Below the pieces are notes generated by a model that was not told where the DNA came from, searched no databases, and worked only from the letters and a program-made list of their open reading frames with translations. Source: a virus (lineage: Duplodnaviria > Heunggongvirae > Uroviricota > Caudoviricetes). Taken from it: DNA of 64,000 nucleotides. The position numbers and the translations under genes were made by a program. The stretch covers positions 182,418 to 246,417 of IMG/VR virus record IMGVR_UViG_3300009784_000001. The stretch is one strand, 5' to 3'. Position 1 is the first letter of the stretch, and the number at the start of each line of letters is the position of its first letter. Positions 4,207-45,587 of the stretch are shown one piece after another.

Positions 4207-5091
4207 TTATTTTACTTTTATTCTTTTCAATTCACCTGGAACCAACTCATAACAAAATTTTCCATCTTCTAATATGAATAATATTCTTTTTTTTGTACCT
4301 TTTTCTTGTTTTATTATACCATTAAGATCTTTATTGTTAATATTTAATGTAATAAAATTATCCTTTTTTGAAGAAGAAATATCTTCATTAATTCCCAATT
4401 TTTTATTTATTATACTTATATTTTCAACTAATTTATCAAGTATTGGATTATTAATTTGTTGTTGGGGCATATAATTCATCATTGGTTGAATTGGAATACC
4501 TTTTGGAACAGTTATGTTATTTTGATATTGAGATTCTGACAATATTTGTTGTTGTACTGGTTTTGGATTCCATGGATTTGCTGTATCTTGAAATAAATCC
4601 ATTCTTGTATTATCTTTAAGATAATTATTTTTAGAATTATCATTTAAACTTCCATAAAATACACTATCATCAATAGGTCTTTTTTCCATTGATTCTGCTA
4701 TCTCTGGAGGTAAATTAGAAAAATTTTTTCTTCCAGAAGTTGAAGGGGACTGTTGATATTGTTGTTGAAGTTGTCGTACTTGATATTCTGACAACATTGC
4801 TGTTTGTTGTGTTTGATACTGTTGTGGATAATTATTATAAGGAATTTGTTGTTGATTTCTAATCATAGGATATTGTTGTGGAGAAGGATAATTTTCATTC
4901 CCTCCAAATCCTGCTTCTTCTTCAAACATTGAAAAATCATCACTTCCATTATATCCAGCATAACCACCATTCATTTTATTATATTGTTCAGCAAGGTTTG
5001 CTTGTCCCATTATGTTTCTGAATTTATTATTGGGAATACCACCATGAATAGCACTCATAAATTGATTCACTTTATCATCTACTGAAGGCAT
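4207..5091 (-). CDS. Q/N/Y/P-rich low-complexity protein
   Basis: PQQYPMIRNQQQIPYNNYPQQYQTQQ...QQQYQQ tract, LPPEIAESM motif, small basic C-terminal domain. Confidence 0.75.
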   Translation of the reverse strand: MPSVDDKVNQFMSAIHGGIPNNKFRNIMGQANLAEQYNKMNGGYAGYNGSDDFSMFEEEAGFGGNENYPSPQQYPMIRNQQQIPYNNYPQQYQTQQTAMLSEYQVRQLQQQYQQSPSTSGRKNFSNLPPEIAESMEKRPIDDSVFYGSLNDNSKNNYLKDNTRMDLFQDTANPWNPKPVQQQILSESQYQNNITVPKGIPIQPMMNYMPQQQINNPILDKLVENISIINKKLGINEDISSSKKDNFITLNINNKDLNGIIKQEKGTKKRILFILEDGKFCYELVPGELKRIKVK

Positions 5092-5099
5092 AACTTTTT

Positions 5100-5867
5100 T
5101 TATTTATTTTGTTCAATTTTCTGTTCAGTTTCTGTTTTTGATTGACCTGGAACTGGACTTTTATTGTTATTATTTTGCTCTTTTTTATAAAGAGCCATAT
5201 ATCTATTTGATAATGCTTGGGCATCTCTAAATGCTTTTAATGCTCTATCTGCTTGTTCTTGATTACCTTTTCTTCTTGCTTGATTATATAAACTTAAACT
5301 TTGGTTAGCAATTGCTTTAACCTCTTTATATCTATCTTGTGTTGTTTTGCTACTTGTTCCAACATTTATATAAGTTGGAGTTTTTTGTTTCAATTGATCT
5401 AATTGTTTTTCTGTATCAGTTTTAAATACTTCTGGTTCTTTTACTGTTGTAACAGTTATATCTTCTCTTGATTTTGAGCCAAATTTTCTATAATCTGCAT
5501 TATATATAACAGAAACCATCCATCTATCACCCCCTTGATTGTAATTTGGCGCAACCTCTCGATTTATAAACCCTGTTGGTTTCCACATTCCAATATCTTT
5601 AAGATAAAAAATTTTCCAATTGGGAACTTTACTTGCTGTATCACCAAATGGTTGATATGCTCTTAAACATAATTCACCTTTATATCTTCCTACTCCTAAA
5701 CAATAGGGGTCTATATACCTTGTCCCATCAGCTATCTCGTAATCAGGAACTTGGCTTATGTAATCTATAATTATTCTTTCACGTTTTTTAAGTGCATCAA
5801 GTACTTTATCACTACTGACTGATTCTGTGATTAATACTTTTTTAAATATTTCATATAGGCTTATCAT
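5100..5867 (-). CDS. WYL-domain protein with Glu-ending N-terminal leader
   Basis: IIIDY...GTRYIDPYCLG...LRAYQ...WKIFYLKDI fits the WYL SH3-like pattern. Start placed at ATG 5867, downstream of TATTTATA (5894-5901, minus). Confidence 0.7.
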   Translation of the reverse strand: MISLYEIFKKVLITESVSSDKVLDALKKRERIIIDYISQVPDYEIADGTRYIDPYCLGVGRYKGELCLRAYQPFGDTASKVPNWKIFYLKDIGMWKPTGFINREVAPNYNQGGDRWMVSVIYNADYRKFGSKSREDITVTTVKEPEVFKTDTEKQLDQLKQKTPTYINVGTSSKTTQDRYKEVKAIANQSLSLYNQARRKGNQEQADRALKAFRDAQALSNRYMALYKKEQNNNNKSPVPGQSKTETEQKIEQNK

Positions 5868-5923
5868 TTTCAAATAAAAAGTAATATATTTACTATAAAT
5901 ATTCAATATTTAGCTTATTAAAA

Positions 5924-6460: not shown

Positions 6461-9094
6461 TTATTTTTTAATTCCCAAGCCCCCCATTGAAACAGCTTCA
6501 GGATTTGTAGTTATTTTTGAATTATCTTTGTAGTGAGTTTGAATAAAAACATTTTTCATTCCAGCATTTTCTGATCCTTTTTTTGACATTTCAATAGATT
6601 TTTGTGCATTATTTAATGCAGAATTAATCCATTTTTTCATTTCATTTCCGCCATTTAATCTATAAGTTTCATCACTACCATCTCCTGTATAATTATCAAA
6701 ATAATTTTTTATTGTACGAATCCAGTCATATCCAATTTTTCCTTTTCTGTCTATAATATTATCTAATCTTTTATAACCATCTAAATTAGTATATTGAGGA
6801 TTACCTTTTACTTTATTATATATATCTAATAAATAATTATATAAATCATTAGGAACTTGAAATGTATGTGATTTTAACATTGAATTTTCTTCATTAATAT
6901 TTTCTTTTATTTCTACCCAATTATCATCAACAGAAGTAAGTTTTCGTCCAGGTTTAGTATCAATTATTTCAATTAATTCAACCTGGCTACCATTAAATGG
7001 TATATAATTATTTCCTATTATATCATAATTTTCTCCTTCATGAATATTTAGCATAACAACAGAATCATATTCAGGTAAAAAAGTGGAAACATATTGCACA
7101 AGAAGATCGGTATGAATATTTACATCAAAATAGTTTATTTTTTCGATAATATCATCAGGTAATGGTAATTGATCCCAATCTTGTCCCTCAACATCAATTA
7201 CAAATGGCTTATTAAGTTTAAGATTACATTTGTAAATATATCTTCCTTCAAATTTCATAGCATTTTCTAAACTATTTGTAAAATAAATGGGAGTAGTTTT
7301 TAATTTTAAATTCAAATTTTTTAATTCTCTTGCATGATAACCTATAACATTATAAGGTTTTGATTTTAATATTTCTTCATTAACATTATCATATCCAAGT
7401 TTATTTGCTGCATCCATAGCCATTTTTGTTAAAATGGAATTACCTGGTACTGATATACCTACACTTAATAATCTTAATTTCTTAGAAGTATCGCTAAGTG
7501 TATTATCATTCATTATTTTATCAATTCTTTTTTGTACACTTGCAACTGTCCAAACATATTCATTTAATTGTGGTTTAATAATTTTTCTATTTTCTATTAT
7601 AGATGAAATAGCATTGGGTTTTCTTGTCATAGTTATAGTATGCTCTCCATTATCATATGGTTTATCTAAAAATTTAAAACCAAAATGTTGATAGAATTGT
7701 GCTAACCATTCCTCGCTCTCATCTTTTGTATCATAAAACCAACCTAGCGGATAAGGTTTTAAAGCTAATATTTTATTATTTTCATCAGCCCATTCACAAA
7801 TATCTTTCATAAATGCTGTACCATAGCCCTTTCCTTTATCTTTGACAACAATAGTATCAATATAAATCCATCCATTAGGTAGTGATGATAATAATAATTT
7901 TTTTAATTTATATTTACTTTCTAATTCTTGATTAAATTTCCATAAATCTTCATCATTTTTATTGTCATTTAAATAATTAAAATCTTTTGTATCTTCACTT
8001 AATCTTGGCTTAATAATTTTTTTATTTTCGTAAGTTTCAGATTTATATTTATTTTTTATTTCATTATCTCTAAATTTTTTGATTAATTTTGTAATTGTAT
8101 CCAATACTTTTTCTTTCATCAATTCATCTTTTTTTAACATAAATAATGGTATATTAATCCATTCAGAAATAAATCTTTCAAATTCATTAAATATTTCTGT
8201 AGCTATTTCATAACTAGATAAAGAATCAAATAACAAATAGTATATACTATCATTTTTATCACGAATTATCCTATTCACATTATAAGTTAATGTATCAAAA
8301 TCAACATTATAATCATTTTTACCTGTATTATCATTAATTATATAAACATTCATTATACCACCATCATGATAATATGAAACACTATATTCCTTATTATTTT
8401 GAAACCAATTTTTATCATTTGGTCTATGAAAACTCCCATAAGCAACTCCATAATCTTTTGGTATATCTAATCTAATTCCATCATCATACCAATCTCCATT
8501 TTTATATTCTATTTTTTCATTTAGTTTTGGTTTAATAATGCCATTTTTTTTTATAGCTTCCATAACAATATTCCTTAAATCTGCCTTCATGTCAGCAGTT
8601 AAATTACTTTTATCAATATTATTCAATAGATATTTAAGAACTTGGTATCTTGCTTGAGGTTCTCTTAATTTTTGATTAATTATTTGAATTGAATTTTGTA
8701 TTCTTTGTTGTGATGTTGAATCTAAAAAATCATTTATATTTACTTCATTATTATTAAATTCTTCATTTACTCTTTTTTTTTTAATCTCAAATAAATTATT
8801 AATATATTTTTTTTCAAAACTTTCTTTTGTCATTGAATAATTAATAGGTCTTGCACCCATAGCTCTACTCCACCAATAATTCTGTTTTGCTACAAAGTTA
8901 CTTTGTTGGTCAGTAGTTGGATTTTTTTGCCCAACATTTGAATTACCAATCATTCCAACAGCAGATGTATCAGAACCTATGGTAGAATCTGTCGGATCAC
9001 TATCATCCAAATATTCAAAAGAATCATCTTCTTCATCAATATTCATGATAACTTCATCTAACTGTTTTTTTGTGAAAATATATTTTTTACCCAT
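6461..9094 (-). CDS. Multidomain (polyvalent) late protein with GNAT acetyltransferase and ADP-ribosyltransferase-like domains
   Basis: GNAT motif A (IYIDTIVVKDKGKGYGTAFM...LAQFYQHFGF); ART-like (GYHA...IYFTNS..NA...IYKCNLKLNKPF...YDSVV); repeated IIKPxLxE linkers. Confidence 0.75.
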   Translation of the reverse strand: MGKKYIFTKKQLDEVIMNIDEEDDSFEYLDDSDPTDSTIGSDTSAVGMIGNSNVGQKNPTTDQQSNFVAKQNYWWSRAMGARPINYSMTKESFEKKYINNLFEIKKKRVNEEFNNNEVNINDFLDSTSQQRIQNSIQIINQKLREPQARYQVLKYLLNNIDKSNLTADMKADLRNIVMEAIKKNGIIKPKLNEKIEYKNGDWYDDGIRLDIPKDYGVAYGSFHRPNDKNWFQNNKEYSVSYYHDGGIMNVYIINDNTGKNDYNVDFDTLTYNVNRIIRDKNDSIYYLLFDSLSSYEIATEIFNEFERFISEWINIPLFMLKKDELMKEKVLDTITKLIKKFRDNEIKNKYKSETYENKKIIKPRLSEDTKDFNYLNDNKNDEDLWKFNQELESKYKLKKLLLSSLPNGWIYIDTIVVKDKGKGYGTAFMKDICEWADENNKILALKPYPLGWFYDTKDESEEWLAQFYQHFGFKFLDKPYDNGEHTITMTRKPNAISSIIENRKIIKPQLNEYVWTVASVQKRIDKIMNDNTLSDTSKKLRLLSVGISVPGNSILTKMAMDAANKLGYDNVNEEILKSKPYNVIGYHARELKNLNLKLKTTPIYFTNSLENAMKFEGRYIYKCNLKLNKPFVIDVEGQDWDQLPLPDDIIEKINYFDVNIHTDLLVQYVSTFLPEYDSVVMLNIHEGENYDIIGNNYIPFNGSQVELIEIIDTKPGRKLTSVDDNWVEIKENINEENSMLKSHTFQVPNDLYNYLLDIYNKVKGNPQYTNLDGYKRLDNIIDRKGKIGYDWIRTIKNYFDNYTGDGSDETYRLNGGNEMKKWINSALNNAQKSIEMSKKGSENAGMKNVFIQTHYKDNSKITTNPEAVSMGGLGIKK

Positions 9095-9114: not shown

Positions 9115-9130
9115 ATATAAATATTTATAT
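9115..9130. promoter_or_regulatory. Palindromic bidirectional putative late promoter ATATAAATATTTATAT
   Basis: Perfect 16-bp palindrome placing TATTTATA about 20 nt upstream of both divergent starts (9094 minus, 9148 plus). Confidence 0.6.
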
Positions 9131-30025: not shown

Positions 30026-30655
30026 ATGAAGTTAATTCTTACAGAACAACAATATAATAAAATATTTGAAATGGCTTATCCTGTTACATTTAATATGGAT
30101 GAGTTCAAACAATTAAGAAGTTTTGCTGAAAGATTTAGGTATTGTAAACAAAGATTGGAATATATAAGTTCTGGTAGTGGAAGATATGTATTTGGAATTG
30201 ATGAAGAAAAAGTATTGAAATTAGCAAAGAATCAAAAAGGAGTTGCTCAAAATGAACAAGAATATGATATGAGTAATAGTGTTCCTTACATTGTAGCTAA
30301 AGTATTTGATGCTGATGATAATTATCTGTGGATAGAAATGGAAAGAGTTAATAAGATAACTATTAAACAATTTGAAATATTAACAGGATTAAATTTCAGA
30401 GAATTTCAACAAGCAATAAGACATCATGATTTAGTAACTGTTAATAATAAAGCAAAATTTAGTGTTCCAAGTTATGATGAAATGTGGGAAAATGAATTTT
30501 TTATGGATATAGCTGATTTAATTGGAAGTTATGACATGCCAAGTGGAGATTTAATGAGAATTAATTCTTATGGAGTTAATAAGAGAGGTGAGATAAAATT
30601 AATTGATGCTGGTCTGTCAAGTGATATATATGATAATTATTATGCAAGAAAATAA
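30026..30655 (+). CDS. Protein kinase-like enzyme with Glu-ending leader
   Basis: Gly loop SSGSGR, VLKLA Lys, alphaC Glu (QNEQE), catalytic GDL..NSYG, IDAG (DFG equivalent). Confidence 0.75.
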   Translation: MKLILTEQQYNKIFEMAYPVTFNMDEFKQLRSFAERFRYCKQRLEYISSGSGRYVFGIDEEKVLKLAKNQKGVAQNEQEYDMSNSVPYIVAKVFDADDNYLWIEMERVNKITIKQFEILTGLNFREFQQAIRHHDLVTVNNKAKFSVPSYDEMWENEFFMDIADLIGSYDMPSGDLMRINSYGVNKRGEIKLIDAGLSSDIYDNYYARK

Positions 30656-39351: not shown

Positions 39352-39377
39352 TAAGGGAGTAATTTTTTACTCCCTTA
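39352..39377. terminator. Bidirectional intrinsic terminator
   Basis: taagggagtaa-tttt-ttactccctta. Confidence 0.8.
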
Positions 39378-40377
39378 TTTTTTTAATAACTTCTTCAATA
39401 TTTTCAAATATATTTTTTTTATTATAAATTTTATATTTTTGACTTTTTATTAAATATTTTTGATTAAATATATATAATATATTAATTCCATTATTTGAAA
39501 CTAAATTATATTTTAATTCATCTTTTTTAATATTTTTTTCAAATTCATTTTTAGTCCATTCTTCACCTTTTCCTGCAAAATTAACTTCCTCAAAATGCTG
39601 TCTTCCTTGATATTCAATTGCAATATTATAATCTGGGAGATAAAAATCTAATTCAAGAGGATAACTTTTTTCAGCATTTTGTAACCAATCAAATTTACTA
39701 TATTGAATAAAATTAATATTTTCTTCTTGTAGCTTTAATCTAATTTCTTCTTCCATTGTAGTTTCAAAGCATATAGGACAATTAGATTTTTTATTTATAT
39801 GATTATAGGGAGTTTGCCAAAATTCACCATGCTTGGGGCATATTATACAAATTTTTGTTTTATTATTTACATAATTCACCTTTGAGTAATCATATTTATC
39901 CCCATGAACTTGTTTAGCTTTTTCAATAAATTTTTCTCTTGAAAAAGAGAACAATTTTTTATATTTTTCACCTTTACATAAAGGACAATTATATCCTTGT
40001 AAATGACTACCAGGAGTTTGCCAAAATTCACCATGCTTGGGGCATATTATACAAACCTTTGTAATTGAATTAATATAATTCACTTTACTATAGTTATATT
40101 TATACCCATGTATTTTTTTAGCTTTTTCTATAAATTCTTCTTTTGAAGAAGAAAATAATTTACTTAAAAATAATTTGCCACATTTTGAACAGCCTTGTTG
40201 TTTCTCTTTCTTTTTACCTATATGTTGGTTTGGTTCAATAAAAAATTCACCATGTTTTGGACATATAATACATACTTTAGTATGAGAATTTATATATTCA
40301 ACTTTTGAATAATCATACTTATTTCCATGAACTTTTTTGGCTTCTTCTATCCATTCTTCTGTAGTTTTTTTCTTCAT
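39367..40377 (-). CDS. Putative homing endonuclease (3 zinc-binding repeats + Vsr-like PD-(D/E)xK nuclease)
   Basis: 3x HG.KY.YSKV.Y.N..TK.CIICPKHGEF; C-terminal LDFYLPDYNIAIEYQGRQHF. Confidence 0.8.
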   Translation of the reverse strand: MKKKTTEEWIEEAKKVHGNKYDYSKVEYINSHTKVCIICPKHGEFFIEPNQHIGKKKEKQQGCSKCGKLFLSKLFSSSKEEFIEKAKKIHGYKYNYSKVNYINSITKVCIICPKHGEFWQTPGSHLQGYNCPLCKGEKYKKLFSFSREKFIEKAKQVHGDKYDYSKVNYVNNKTKICIICPKHGEFWQTPYNHINKKSNCPICFETTMEEEIRLKLQEENINFIQYSKFDWLQNAEKSYPLELDFYLPDYNIAIEYQGRQHFEEVNFAGKGEEWTKNEFEKNIKKDELKYNLVSNNGINILYIFNQKYLIKSQKYKIYNKKNIFENIEEVIKKIRE

Positions 40378-43981: not shown

Positions 43982-44695
43982 GTGAAAACAACTCTATTTA
44001 TTTCACATTACATCTTTGAGGAAAATGAAAAATCATTTCAAAGATTTGTTCCTGAAAATCAAAAAAAGGAAGATTATAATTTAAATATTAAATTAAAAAT
44101 AGATTCTTTAAATGAAAAGGGACAAGAAGTAAGTGAAGATATAGACCATATATTGTGGAATTTTAGTGGATATGAAAATCAAAGTGAAGAAATAAATAAT
44201 TATTTGAAAGCAGATAAACAATTTATTGAAACATTGAAAAATAATGAAAATTTTGATTATTTATCAGATATAAAATTGGAATATGATAAAAATGAAGAAT
44301 TAGAAAAAAAAGTATTATCCCCAATTCCTGTTACAATGTATAATCCAAAAGGAAAGGAATTGCAATTAGGAAATTTAATTGAATATTATAAAAATAATTG
44401 TGATTTCCCTTTTCTTATGAAAATAGATTTTGAAAATATTGATATGGATGCTGAAATTCAATTTAATATATGGGTAAGATTAACTAGAAAGCTATTATCA
44501 ATACCAAATGGTATAATGCCAATGAATGAAAAAATTAAAAAATTACCTATAAAAGATTTGAAATTTGAAACAATAAATAATTATGGAACAATAACAGCAG
44601 GCTATTTAAAAGGTTGTAAAATAATTGAAAAACTATCCATTAATAAATATATTATCTATGTAAATAATATTATTTTTGTTGCTAACAATAAATAA
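43982..44695 (+). CDS. Hypothetical protein
   Basis: 237-aa ORF, GTG start; no motif recognised. Confidence 0.65.
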   Translation: MKTTLFISHYIFEENEKSFQRFVPENQKKEDYNLNIKLKIDSLNEKGQEVSEDIDHILWNFSGYENQSEEINNYLKADKQFIETLKNNENFDYLSDIKLEYDKNEELEKKVLSPIPVTMYNPKGKELQLGNLIEYYKNNCDFPFLMKIDFENIDMDAEIQFNIWVRLTRKLLSIPNGIMPMNEKIKKLPIKDLKFETINNYGTITAGYLKGCKIIEKLSINKYIIYVNNIIFVANNK

Positions 44696-44696
44696 A

Positions 44697-45587
44697 ATGA
44701 GCAAAAGAAAAACAACAGAAGAATTTATTCAAGAAGCAAAATTAATACATGGGAATATATATGATTATTCTAATGTTGAATATGTAAATTGGAAAACGAA
44801 AGTTTGTATAATTTGTCCAGAACATGGTAAATTTAATCAAATAGCATTAGGTCATTTACAAGGACAAGGCTGTCCTAAATGTGGAGGTACAAAAAAATTA
44901 ACAACAAACGAATTTATCAAAAAAGCTATATTAAAATATGAAAATAAATATGATTATTCAAAGGTAAATTATATTAATAATAAAACAAAAGTGTGTATTA
45001 TTTGTCCTATTCATGGTGAATTTTGGCAAACTCCAAATAATCATTTAACTGGTTATGGATGTGATAAATGTGGTAATTCATATAATTATACAACAGAGGA
45101 ATTTATTGAAAAGGCTAAAAAAGTTCAGGGTGATAAATATAATTATTCAAAAGTAAAATATGAAGATATTAAGAAAAAAATATATATAATCTGTCCAGAA
45201 CATGGTAAATTTTTACAAACTCCTGATAAACATTTACGAGGGCAAGGTTGTCCTTTTTGTAATAAATCTAAATTGGAAAATAGAGTTAGTAGTTTATTAG
45301 AAAATATAAATTATATTTATCAATATAAACCATTGTGGCTAAAAAATGGAAAAGGGCAAAAAAGCATTGATTTCTATCTTCCAGATTATAATATTGCCAT
45401 TGAATGTCAAGGAAAACAACATTTTGAACCTATTAATTGGTTTGGAGGAATAGAAACATTAAAAGGAATACAAGAAAGGGATAAATTAAAGAAGGAATTA
45501 TGTAAAAAGAATAATCTTCCTTTATATTATATAAACTATAATGATAATGTGGAAGAAAAAATGAATAAAATTTTAAATAATAAATAA
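44697..45587 (+). CDS. Putative homing endonuclease (3 zinc repeats + Vsr-like nuclease)
   Basis: 3x ICP.HG.F.Q...HL.G.GC..C; IDFYLPDYNIAIECQGKQHF; start MSKRK at 44697. Confidence 0.8.
   Translation: MSKRKTTEEFIQEAKLIHGNIYDYSNVEYVNWKTKVCIICPEHGKFNQIALGHLQGQGCPKCGGTKKLTTNEFIKKAILKYENKYDYSKVNYINNKTKVCIICPIHGEFWQTPNNHLTGYGCDKCGNSYNYTTEEFIEKAKKVQGDKYNYSKVKYEDIKKKIYIICPEHGKFLQTPDKHLRGQGCPFCNKSKLENRVSSLLENINYIYQYKPLWLKNGKGQKSIDFYLPDYNIAIECQGKQHFEPINWFGGIETLKGIQERDKLKKELCKKNNLPLYYINYNDNVEEKMNKILNNK

Follow-up and report, generated by a model that had tools for sequence, protein, structure and literature searches.

How does one phage gene come to hold several unrelated modules, enzymes among them, with nearly the same short peptide repeated between them, and what becomes of the chain once it is made? 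The locus that raises this question lies in a 64,000-nucleotide stretch of DNA (the window; positions 182,418 to 246,417) of the IMG/VR virus record IMGVR_UViG_3300009784_000001 (G000), a complete genome of 359,943 bp with direct terminal repeats and 26% G+C. The source phage is a myovirus, with genes for a tail sheath, a tape measure, a portal, a gp23-like capsid protein and a T4-type prohead protease. The gene itself is an open reading frame (ORF) at window positions 6461-9094 on the minus strand, stop codon included, and encodes P0001, a polyvalent protein of 877 residues. A preliminary description had read it as an expandable array of cassettes. This is supported by the borders of the modules, the varied cargo of relatives, a Peptidase_S77 (S77) protease in the same genome and motif enrichment in a scaffold candidate. 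We put the probability at about one in two that P0001, a polyvalent (multi-effector) phage protein, has the build of a cassette array and is cut apart in the capsid by the prohead protease.

If so, two conserved N-terminal segments, A and B, and a C-terminal helical module would frame interchangeable cargo modules. The chain would be made late and built into the prohead core, where the prohead protease would cut after the glutamates at the joints to give separate modules. These would be ejected with the DNA, and an acetyltransferase of the GNAT type and an ADP-ribosyltransferase (ART) among them would modify host proteins. Late expression, packaging, cleavage, ejection and targets are steps that we infer, and release by the prohead protease, itself at even odds, would be the best-supported mechanism.

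The joints of P0001

The three near-identical IIKPxLxE linkers of the preliminary description lie exactly where it had placed them, and the three shorter joints that it listed are present as well. All features of P0001 are on the minus strand. Linker 1 is IIKPKLNE (residues 186-193, window 8516-8539, candidate cut L191-N192-E193|K194), linker 2 is IIKPRLSE (residues 360-367, 7994-8017, L365-S366-E367|D368) and linker 3 is IIKPQLNE (residues 505-512, 7559-7582, L510-N511-E512|Y513). The shorter joints are RVNEE (residues 108-112, 8759-8773, V109-N110-E111|E112), NVNEE (residues 570-574, 7373-7387, V571-N572-E573|E574) and NINEE (residues 732-736, 6887-6901, I733-N734-E735|E736). Every joint of P0001 has a hydrophobic-x-Glu (h-x-E), three as IIKPxL(N/S)E and three as (V/I)NEE; the motifs at the joints read LNE, LSE, LNE, INE and LFE, plus VNE twice.

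Across the ORFs of at least 40 residues in the genome, IIKP.L.E occurs three times, always in P0001, whereas the numbers expected from composition are 0.014 for the proteome and 0.0001 for P0001; the repeat is therefore real and not a product of chance. As DNA, the linkers resemble one another no more than is to be expected from the residues they have in common and an AT-rich codon usage. Six of the seven [LIVM][NS]E sites of P0001 (P1 residues 111, 193, 367, 512, 573 and 735) fall within the ~11% of the protein marked as borders (binomial p ~1e-5), the border windows having been set after the fact from homology break-points (HMMER match ranges). The full IIKPxLxE form is lineage-specific, and distant relatives keep h-x-E alone. 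P0075, from another phage, has the same linker motif as EEILKPAITE ahead of segment B.

Modules with separate homologues

An exhaustive HMMER search with P0001 gave 342 matches, in separate groups, one per module. From the N-terminus the order is segment A, segment B, an unnamed module 2, a mini-GNAT, a small helical module, an ART-PolyVal module with H587, Y604 and D677, and the C-terminal helical module. Segment A (residues 1-103, 8786-9094; homologues P0002, P0013, P0018 and P0151) has a leader-like start, MGKKYIFTKKQLDE/VIMNIDE, a conserved QNYWWSRA and the end NNLFE, and the [IL]xE at its joint with segment B is kept in all four homologues. Segment B (residues 113-185, 8540-8758; homologues P0003, P0013, P0075, P0002 and P0151) is helical and conserved, with the pattern DINDFLD..SQQKI..IINQKL..RYQVLKYLLNNI..ADMK..LRNIVME. 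Module 2 (residues 194-359, 8018-8515) belongs to no named family and has a stand-alone homologue of 186 residues, P0011 (E 6e-27), which matches residues 194-345 and stops about 12 residues before linker 2.

The third cargo module, a minimal GNAT acetyltransferase (residues 368-504, 7583-7993), has the homologues P0106, P0150, P0116 and P0089, which cover residues 368-495; its stand-alone homologues end 7-10 residues before linker 3. It is followed by the small helical module (residues 513-569, 7388-7558), which has no named homologue and is modelled as three helices. Cargo module 5, of the ART-PolyVal type (residues 575-731, 6902-7372), is matched over residues 576-729 by P0110 (155 residues), P0134 and P0087. 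The last module (residues 737-877, 6464-6886) is a conserved helical domain of no named family that accounts for about 300 of the 342 matches. Homologues of the ART and C-terminal modules begin at NVNEE and NINEE, respectively, and the stand-alone ART proteins carry short leaders ending in LxE (MIKLRE in P0110, MITNFYLFE in P0134). Segments A and B and the C-terminal module matched no family in Pfam or PHROG, and no peptidase family was found in P0001 in either collection.

Full-length alignments put cargo homologues onto the C-terminal module, and P0001 was therefore folded by AlphaFold as two pieces, residues 181-575 and 725-877. The first model is moderate, with a mean predicted local distance difference test (pLDDT) of 53. 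Module 2 is poorly modelled (30-55) and the small helical module lies at 57-80. The regions of linker 2 (residues 344-380) and linker 3 (residues 496-513) are both below 50 and lie between structured blocks; linker 2 itself is coil at ~30, between a helix at 324-351 and the GNAT. The second model is good (pLDDT 86), and since its residues 725-734 are disordered, the C-terminal fold has E735|E736 at its edge. The linkers thus stand between modules, as had been claimed: homologues end 7-12 residues before linkers 2 and 3 or begin at the xNEE joints, and linkers 2 and 3 and NINEE lie in low-confidence coil. The modules are independent units, each with its own homologues elsewhere that begin or end at the joints.

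Cargo exchange among relatives

A metagenome contig (L100) carries the syntenic locus of a related phage, in which the divergent 574-residue neighbour is 80% identical and is followed by a fibre gene. The orthologue in it, P0151, is 893 residues long and incomplete because the contig stops there. Its identity with P0001 is 73% in segment A and 57% over segment B with linker 1, where KKNGIIKPKLNE itself is identical. Between A and B, at the RVNEE joint where relatives' cargo inserts sit, P0151 has about 580 residues of other modules: X1, which is tudor-like, and X2, which has an HEINH motif, with four h-N-E sites within 40 residues between the two. After linker 1 comes a module unrelated to anything in P0001. 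P0002 has the order A-X1-B, without X2, with an insert of 310 residues at the RVNEE position; P0003 joins B straight to the C-terminal module through NLSEE, and P0013 is A-B only.

The preliminary description had expected conserved ends and variable, linker-flanked cargo in relatives. This is the pattern that was found: P0151, P0002 and P0003 add three further architectures. At the level of sequence, these comparisons show cassette exchange at conserved linkers between related phages. P0001 and P0151 form a clean natural experiment, in which the linker is the same and the cargo different.

X2 had no Pfam peptidase match despite its HEINH, and was rejected as a recognised peptidase. A homologue of X2 is a separate gene in the present genome (G000:C1:97638-98627, minus strand; 329 residues, E 3e-13), with an HELTH motif and an 11-residue leader, MSKESVIKLVE.

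The GNAT and ADP-ribosyltransferase modules

The acetyltransferase call of the preliminary description was borne out by two kinds of evidence. The Pfam family Acetyltransf_7 matches P0001 below its threshold (E 0.02, 15.7 bits against a cut-off of 27), and the same weak match recurs in four homologues, P0150, P0116 and P0089 among them. In a Foldseek search of the PDB with the AlphaFold model of the module (pLDDT 60-80), all top matches were GNATs, at E 3e-4 and weaker. A sequence like GNAT motif A, KDKGKGYGTAF, lies at residues 418-428, with KGKGYG at 420-425.

Among the closest solved folds is AcrVA5, a phage mini-GNAT anti-CRISPR protein (PDB 6iuf; template modelling score 0.67 by target, 91 columns, 22% identity), and both are minimal phage GNATs of about 100 residues. 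The likeness is one of fold level, AcrVA5 being one of many GNAT matches, and it gives no pointer to Cas12a or another target. As a fold-level observation, the closeness of the module (window 7583-7993) to AcrVA5 is a lead to a counter-defence role.

For the ART-like domain the family assignment stands, as ART-PolyVal, and one detail does not: the third catalytic residue would be D677, outside the YKCNL to which the preliminary description had pointed. P0001 itself gave no match to PF18760 in Pfam at E up to 1. Its homologue P0134 passes the ART-PolyVal cut-off (36 against 31.2 bits), P0110 matches at E 6e-6, and an Atlas lead for ART-PolyVal scored 0.93. In an alignment, H587, Y604 and D677 match their counterparts in the bona fide PF18760 domain that this genome encodes elsewhere, and in P0134, P0110 and P0087. 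The active site of the ART-PolyVal/Tox-ART-HYD2 group is made up of a His in strand 1, a Tyr in strand 2 and an Asp in strand 5 (PMC5512222). Transitive homology and this H-Y-D triad support module 5 as an ART-PolyVal domain with a predicted active site. Membership of the R-S-E clade of T4 Alt, ModA and ModB was rejected because of the H-Y-D configuration, together with the ART-PolyVal match.

The genome also encodes a second, classical polyvalent protein of 2171 residues (G000:C1:122264-128779; L005:264-6779, plus strand), with ART-PolyVal (residues 67-205, E 1e-14), InPase (residues 757-895, E 3e-43) and NTP_transf_2 domains.

A prohead protease and its motif

The joint sites fit the L/I-x-E rule of T4-type proteases, which makes the phage's own Peptidase_S77 the candidate cutter. 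In T4, gp21 cuts after Glu in L/I-X-E, propeptides range from 7 (Alt) to 65 (gp23) residues, and internal proteins carry a 10-residue capsid-targeting sequence (PMC9026906). The S77 gene of the present phage (G000 149979-150698; PF03420, 69 bits, E 6e-20, over the cut-off) lies between the portal and the scaffold/gp23-like capsid genes. The scaffold candidate is an acidic protein of 465 residues encoded between the protease and capsid genes. It has 13 [LI]xE sites against 6.0 expected (p 0.004) and five [LIVM][NS]E sites, TINEE included, against 1.4 (p 0.009). For P0001 the corresponding counts are 16 against 9.9 (p 0.027) and 7 against 2.3 (p 0.005).

When ORFs were ranked genome-wide, the motif-richest lay mostly in or beside the head-gene region; the 2171-residue polyvalent protein was among them (47 [LI]xE sites against 31), and P0001 ranked fourth. 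An [LI]xE at residues 2-14, as in MGKKYIFTKKQLDE|VIMNIDE| of P0001, is found in 20% of all ORFs, compared with 14% at a control position inside the ORFs. In giant phages of the phiKZ and SPN3US type, the recognised motif is (S/A/G)-x-E or A-x-E (PMC10052503). The [ASG]xE motif was not enriched anywhere in the proteins examined, and a phiKZ-type specificity was rejected for that reason.

Just upstream of the head genes lies a gene for a 548-residue protein without a family match (G000:C1:128859-130505; L005:6859-8505, plus strand). It contains nine h-(N/S)-E sites (eight h-N-E and one M-S-E, several of them after Lys) against 1.5 expected, which puts it among the motif-richest ORFs; judging by its sequence, it probably belongs to the prohead core and is cut into peptides.

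The C-terminal module is a widespread family

The C-terminal module occurs on at least 499 IMG/VR contigs and is widespread in uncultured large myoviruses. Its matches are mostly stand-alone proteins of 150-180 residues, and some form the start or the end of longer proteins (up to 2613 residues); the extensions in these longer relatives contain no Pfam domain. Searches for its fold found no solved match (Foldseek against the PDB, E >1; VIA-wide, Z <=4.4), and in BFVD it matched only uncharacterised myovirus proteins and, weakly, long 'prohead protease/XkdF' proteins.

The sequence that precedes the domain was compared in 138 representatives at <=50% identity, of which 59 begin with the domain itself (MANSxL) and 69 extend upstream of it. 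An [LIVM]xE lies within three residues of the domain in 59 of these 69, and in six others a Gly-rich spacer separates the two. The P3 residue is Leu or Ile in 57 of the 59 sites and P2 is free. The motif is found both at internal joints and at the end of 7-residue leaders such as MLHLITE. In relatives, InPase (PF18823) modules are flanked by [LI]xE on both sides, and P0007 repeats VDDTLxE. In favour of the protease reading, an S77 protease is encoded by 20 of the 22 large IMG/VR contigs with the C-terminal module, and by 5/5 of the complete ones, in a test that had no control set; these 22 related contigs share only the C-terminal module with P0001.

Alternative readings

Several observations weigh against cleavage in the capsid. 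The phage is uncultured and known only from a metagenome. The [LI]xE motif is short and common, at 1.47 per 100 residues in this proteome; nine more such sites lie inside the modules of P0001, and the P1' residues at the joints vary (K, D, Y and E). Cleavage by itself does not account for the IIKP part of the linker. The AlphaFold model of residues 181-292 is too poor to judge linker 1. In the C-terminal family, 59 of the 138 members have no leader at all, and the fold might instead include the hydrophobic leader as an optional beta-strand. The co-occurrence of S77 proteases with the C-terminal module was scored with no control set. The neighbours of the P0001 gene are tail-fibre genes, and the head module lies about 37 kb away.

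Part of this would be expected if P0001 were an uncut polyvalent protein that works as one chain, with IIKPxLxE and xNEE as flexible tethers and joints for cassette recombination, and with the likeness to protease sites incidental in a proteome rich in I, L, N and E. There are precedents in the virion RNA polymerase of N4, ArdC and TraC1, which are delivered unprocessed (PMC5512222). The frequency of [LI]xE in the proteome and the nine sites inside modules would follow directly. Homologous recombination between cassettes would be helped by a linker whose sequence is conserved, and linker 1 is indeed identical between phages with different flanking cargo. A tether, however, leaves unexplained the invariant P1 Glu and the P3 Leu/Ile with a free P2 over 59 members of the C-terminal family. 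It also does not explain why the same motif crowds the scaffold candidate and the head-region protein, or why stand-alone homologues of four different modules carry short leaders that end in LxE. We consider an uncut chain rather unlikely on these grounds.

A second alternative starts from the conserved upstream part of the linker. KK-IIKP-x-L could be a docking peptide for the scaffold, the portal, a site in the capsid interior or a host factor, loading each module or the whole chain, with cleavage, if any, elsewhere. The conserved stretch (ENxKIIKP) does reach well upstream of LxE, and the weak BFVD fold matches tie the C-terminal module to the long 'prohead protease/XkdF' proteins. Two other ORFs of the genome carry similar peptides. 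An unrelated head-region ORF of 798 residues (G000:C1:135731-139317; L005:13731-17317, plus strand) ends in ESKKIIKPKL-stop with no Glu, a further point against cleavage at this motif. Its TGA overlaps the GTG (TTGTGA) that starts a 397-residue ORF beginning KKVILTENQ. By its sequence the pair looks like a chain split exactly at the IIKP linker, or like translational coupling; a docking motif fits as well. The other ORF (G000:C1:288574-291048; L007:2574-5048, plus strand) encodes 824 residues with an HEVNH (HExxH) motif, a PIYKPKLQE joint at residue 491 and an internal, leader-like GKKVIIKEEQVKLLRQIINE; it had no Pfam match and is possibly another multi-module cargo protein. Docking is nevertheless an improbable account of the joints as a whole: RVNEE, NVNEE, NINEE and the joints of relatives (VDDTLxE and a KKLNE/PVNE/MLNE/LINE cluster) lack IIKP and share only h-x-E, and the binding partner is hypothetical.

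The idea that P0001 is a cytoplasmic multi-enzyme fusion acting in the infected cell, not a virion component, with its tail-fibre neighbourhood incidental, would suit its lack of a match to structural-protein families, its distance from the head genes and the weak late-promoter evidence (below), but is equally improbable, because polyvalent proteins of the ART-PolyVal and InPase types are typically linked to late or virion genes (PMC5512222), T4 alt likewise lies beside baseplate genes, and the motif pattern is common to P0001 and the head-core candidates.

Relation to known systems

The concept of a cassette array of effectors is less new than the preliminary description had assumed, because most of it is already contained in the polyvalent proteins that Iyer, Burroughs, Anand, de Souza and Aravind described from phages and conjugative elements in 2017 (PMC5512222). 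That study describes ART-PolyVal beside GNAT, predicts packaging and injection, proposes the release of domains by embedded MPTase or assemblin-like peptidases, and itself draws the analogy to viral polyproteins. P0001 resembles these proteins in combining a GNAT, the signature domain ART-PolyVal and at least three further independently occurring modules in one polypeptide. InPase (PF18823) is found in relatives of its C-terminal module and also, together with ART-PolyVal and a nucleotidyltransferase domain, in the 2171-residue protein of this genome.

Unlike many polyvalent proteins, P0001 has no detected embedded peptidase, either MPTase or C-terminal assemblin-like (both frequent there, not universal), whereas every joint has a site that fits a separately encoded T4-type prohead protease. 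Its framing N- and C-terminal modules lie outside Pfam and PHROG families, and a comparison of two related phages shows directly that cassettes have been exchanged at an identical linker. P0001 thus differs from the proteins of PMC5512222 in the lack of an embedded peptidase, in the repeated joints that fit a protease acting in trans, and in two new framing modules. No description of trans-processed joints in polyvalent proteins was found in the literature searched.

The internal proteins IPI-III and Alt of T4, with gp21 (MEROPS S77; PMC9026906), share with the present system a T4-type protease, L/I-x-E sites and variable cargo enzymes that include an ADP-ribosyltransferase. They carry N-terminal propeptides of 7-10 residues that end in L/I-x-E, of which Alt loses 7 residues, and short leaders are also found in relatives of P0001. 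In T4, however, every cargo protein has a gene and a leader to itself, whereas in P0001 the cargos are chained with an internal repeated site. T4 Alt, an R-S-E enzyme, modifies host proteins after ejection; the ART of P0001, of the H-Y-D type, would act as Alt does without belonging to its clade. The giant phages phiKZ, 201phi2-1 and SPN3US, whose ejection and inner-body proteins are cut by gp175/gp245 (PMC10052503, PMC5694885), are also myoviruses, with many head-internal proteins and a gp21-related protease that cuts after Glu, sometimes more than once in a protein. Those proteases recognise (S/A/G)-x-E or A-x-E and mostly remove N-terminal propeptides; in P0001 the motif is [LI]xE and the sites separate enzyme modules.

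Tentatively, and at odds a little short of even, the reading may be extended to giant phages that bear a T4-type protease in general. Their polyvalent proteins would be cargo polyproteins processed in trans, each cassette being a former stand-alone internal head protein whose [LI]xE leader doubles as a joint. Through recombination at the joints the phage could gain, lose or exchange effectors, which the prohead protease would release automatically in the capsid, and the C-terminal module would commonly serve this delivery system as passenger or anchor. Provided that the joints are true protease sites, this would explain how many small host-modifying enzymes are delivered from one gene with no embedded peptidase, and how effector arsenals evolve rapidly by cassette exchange. 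The joint motif should then follow the protease family of the phage, a rule that could find packaged effectors in metagenomic phages. The C-terminal module family, the mini-GNAT and the H-Y-D ART are candidates for counter-defence or host take-over.

Genome context and other observations

Searches with P0001 as a whole gave little: tblastn against 50,697 phage records found no match, a word-index protein search matched a single fragment, an IMG/VR scan with the N-terminal domain found no relatives, a sequence search against the PDB was empty, and phmmer found no paralogue of any P0001 module in the phage's own genome.

The P0001 gene is divergent from tail-fibre-like genes. The divergent intergenic region upstream of it, 53 bp long, contains the palindrome TATAAATATTTATA (window 9116-9129), inside which lies TATAAATA, a box like that of T4 late promoters, about 28-35 nucleotides upstream of the P0001 gene and also upstream of the divergent gene for a 574-residue protein. 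With 37 copies in the window against 28 expected, the box shows no significant enrichment there, so the support that it gives to late expression is weak; this too counts against the proposed course of events.

In the same operon as P0001, a gene at window 4207-5091 (minus strand) encodes a Q-rich protein of 294 residues without a family match. It has seven [LI]xE sites against 2.3 expected and, by that count, may be another processed head protein.

Two HNH/homing-endonuclease genes lie among the tail genes of the window, at 39367-40377 (minus strand) and 44676-45587 (plus strand), with matches to PHROG 559 at E 4e-61 and 6e-73.

An amphipathic motif, h-I-h-[TN]-E-x-Q-[LY]-x-x-[LI], recurs in many proteins of this phage group, both at their N- and C-termini and at module joints. 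It occurs at window 5100-5906 and 30026-30655, at G000 134569, 138124, 150695 and 163488, and in the proteins P0017, P0020, P0025, P0035, P0061, P0071 and P0100. From its pattern, it could be a targeting or oligomerisation helix.

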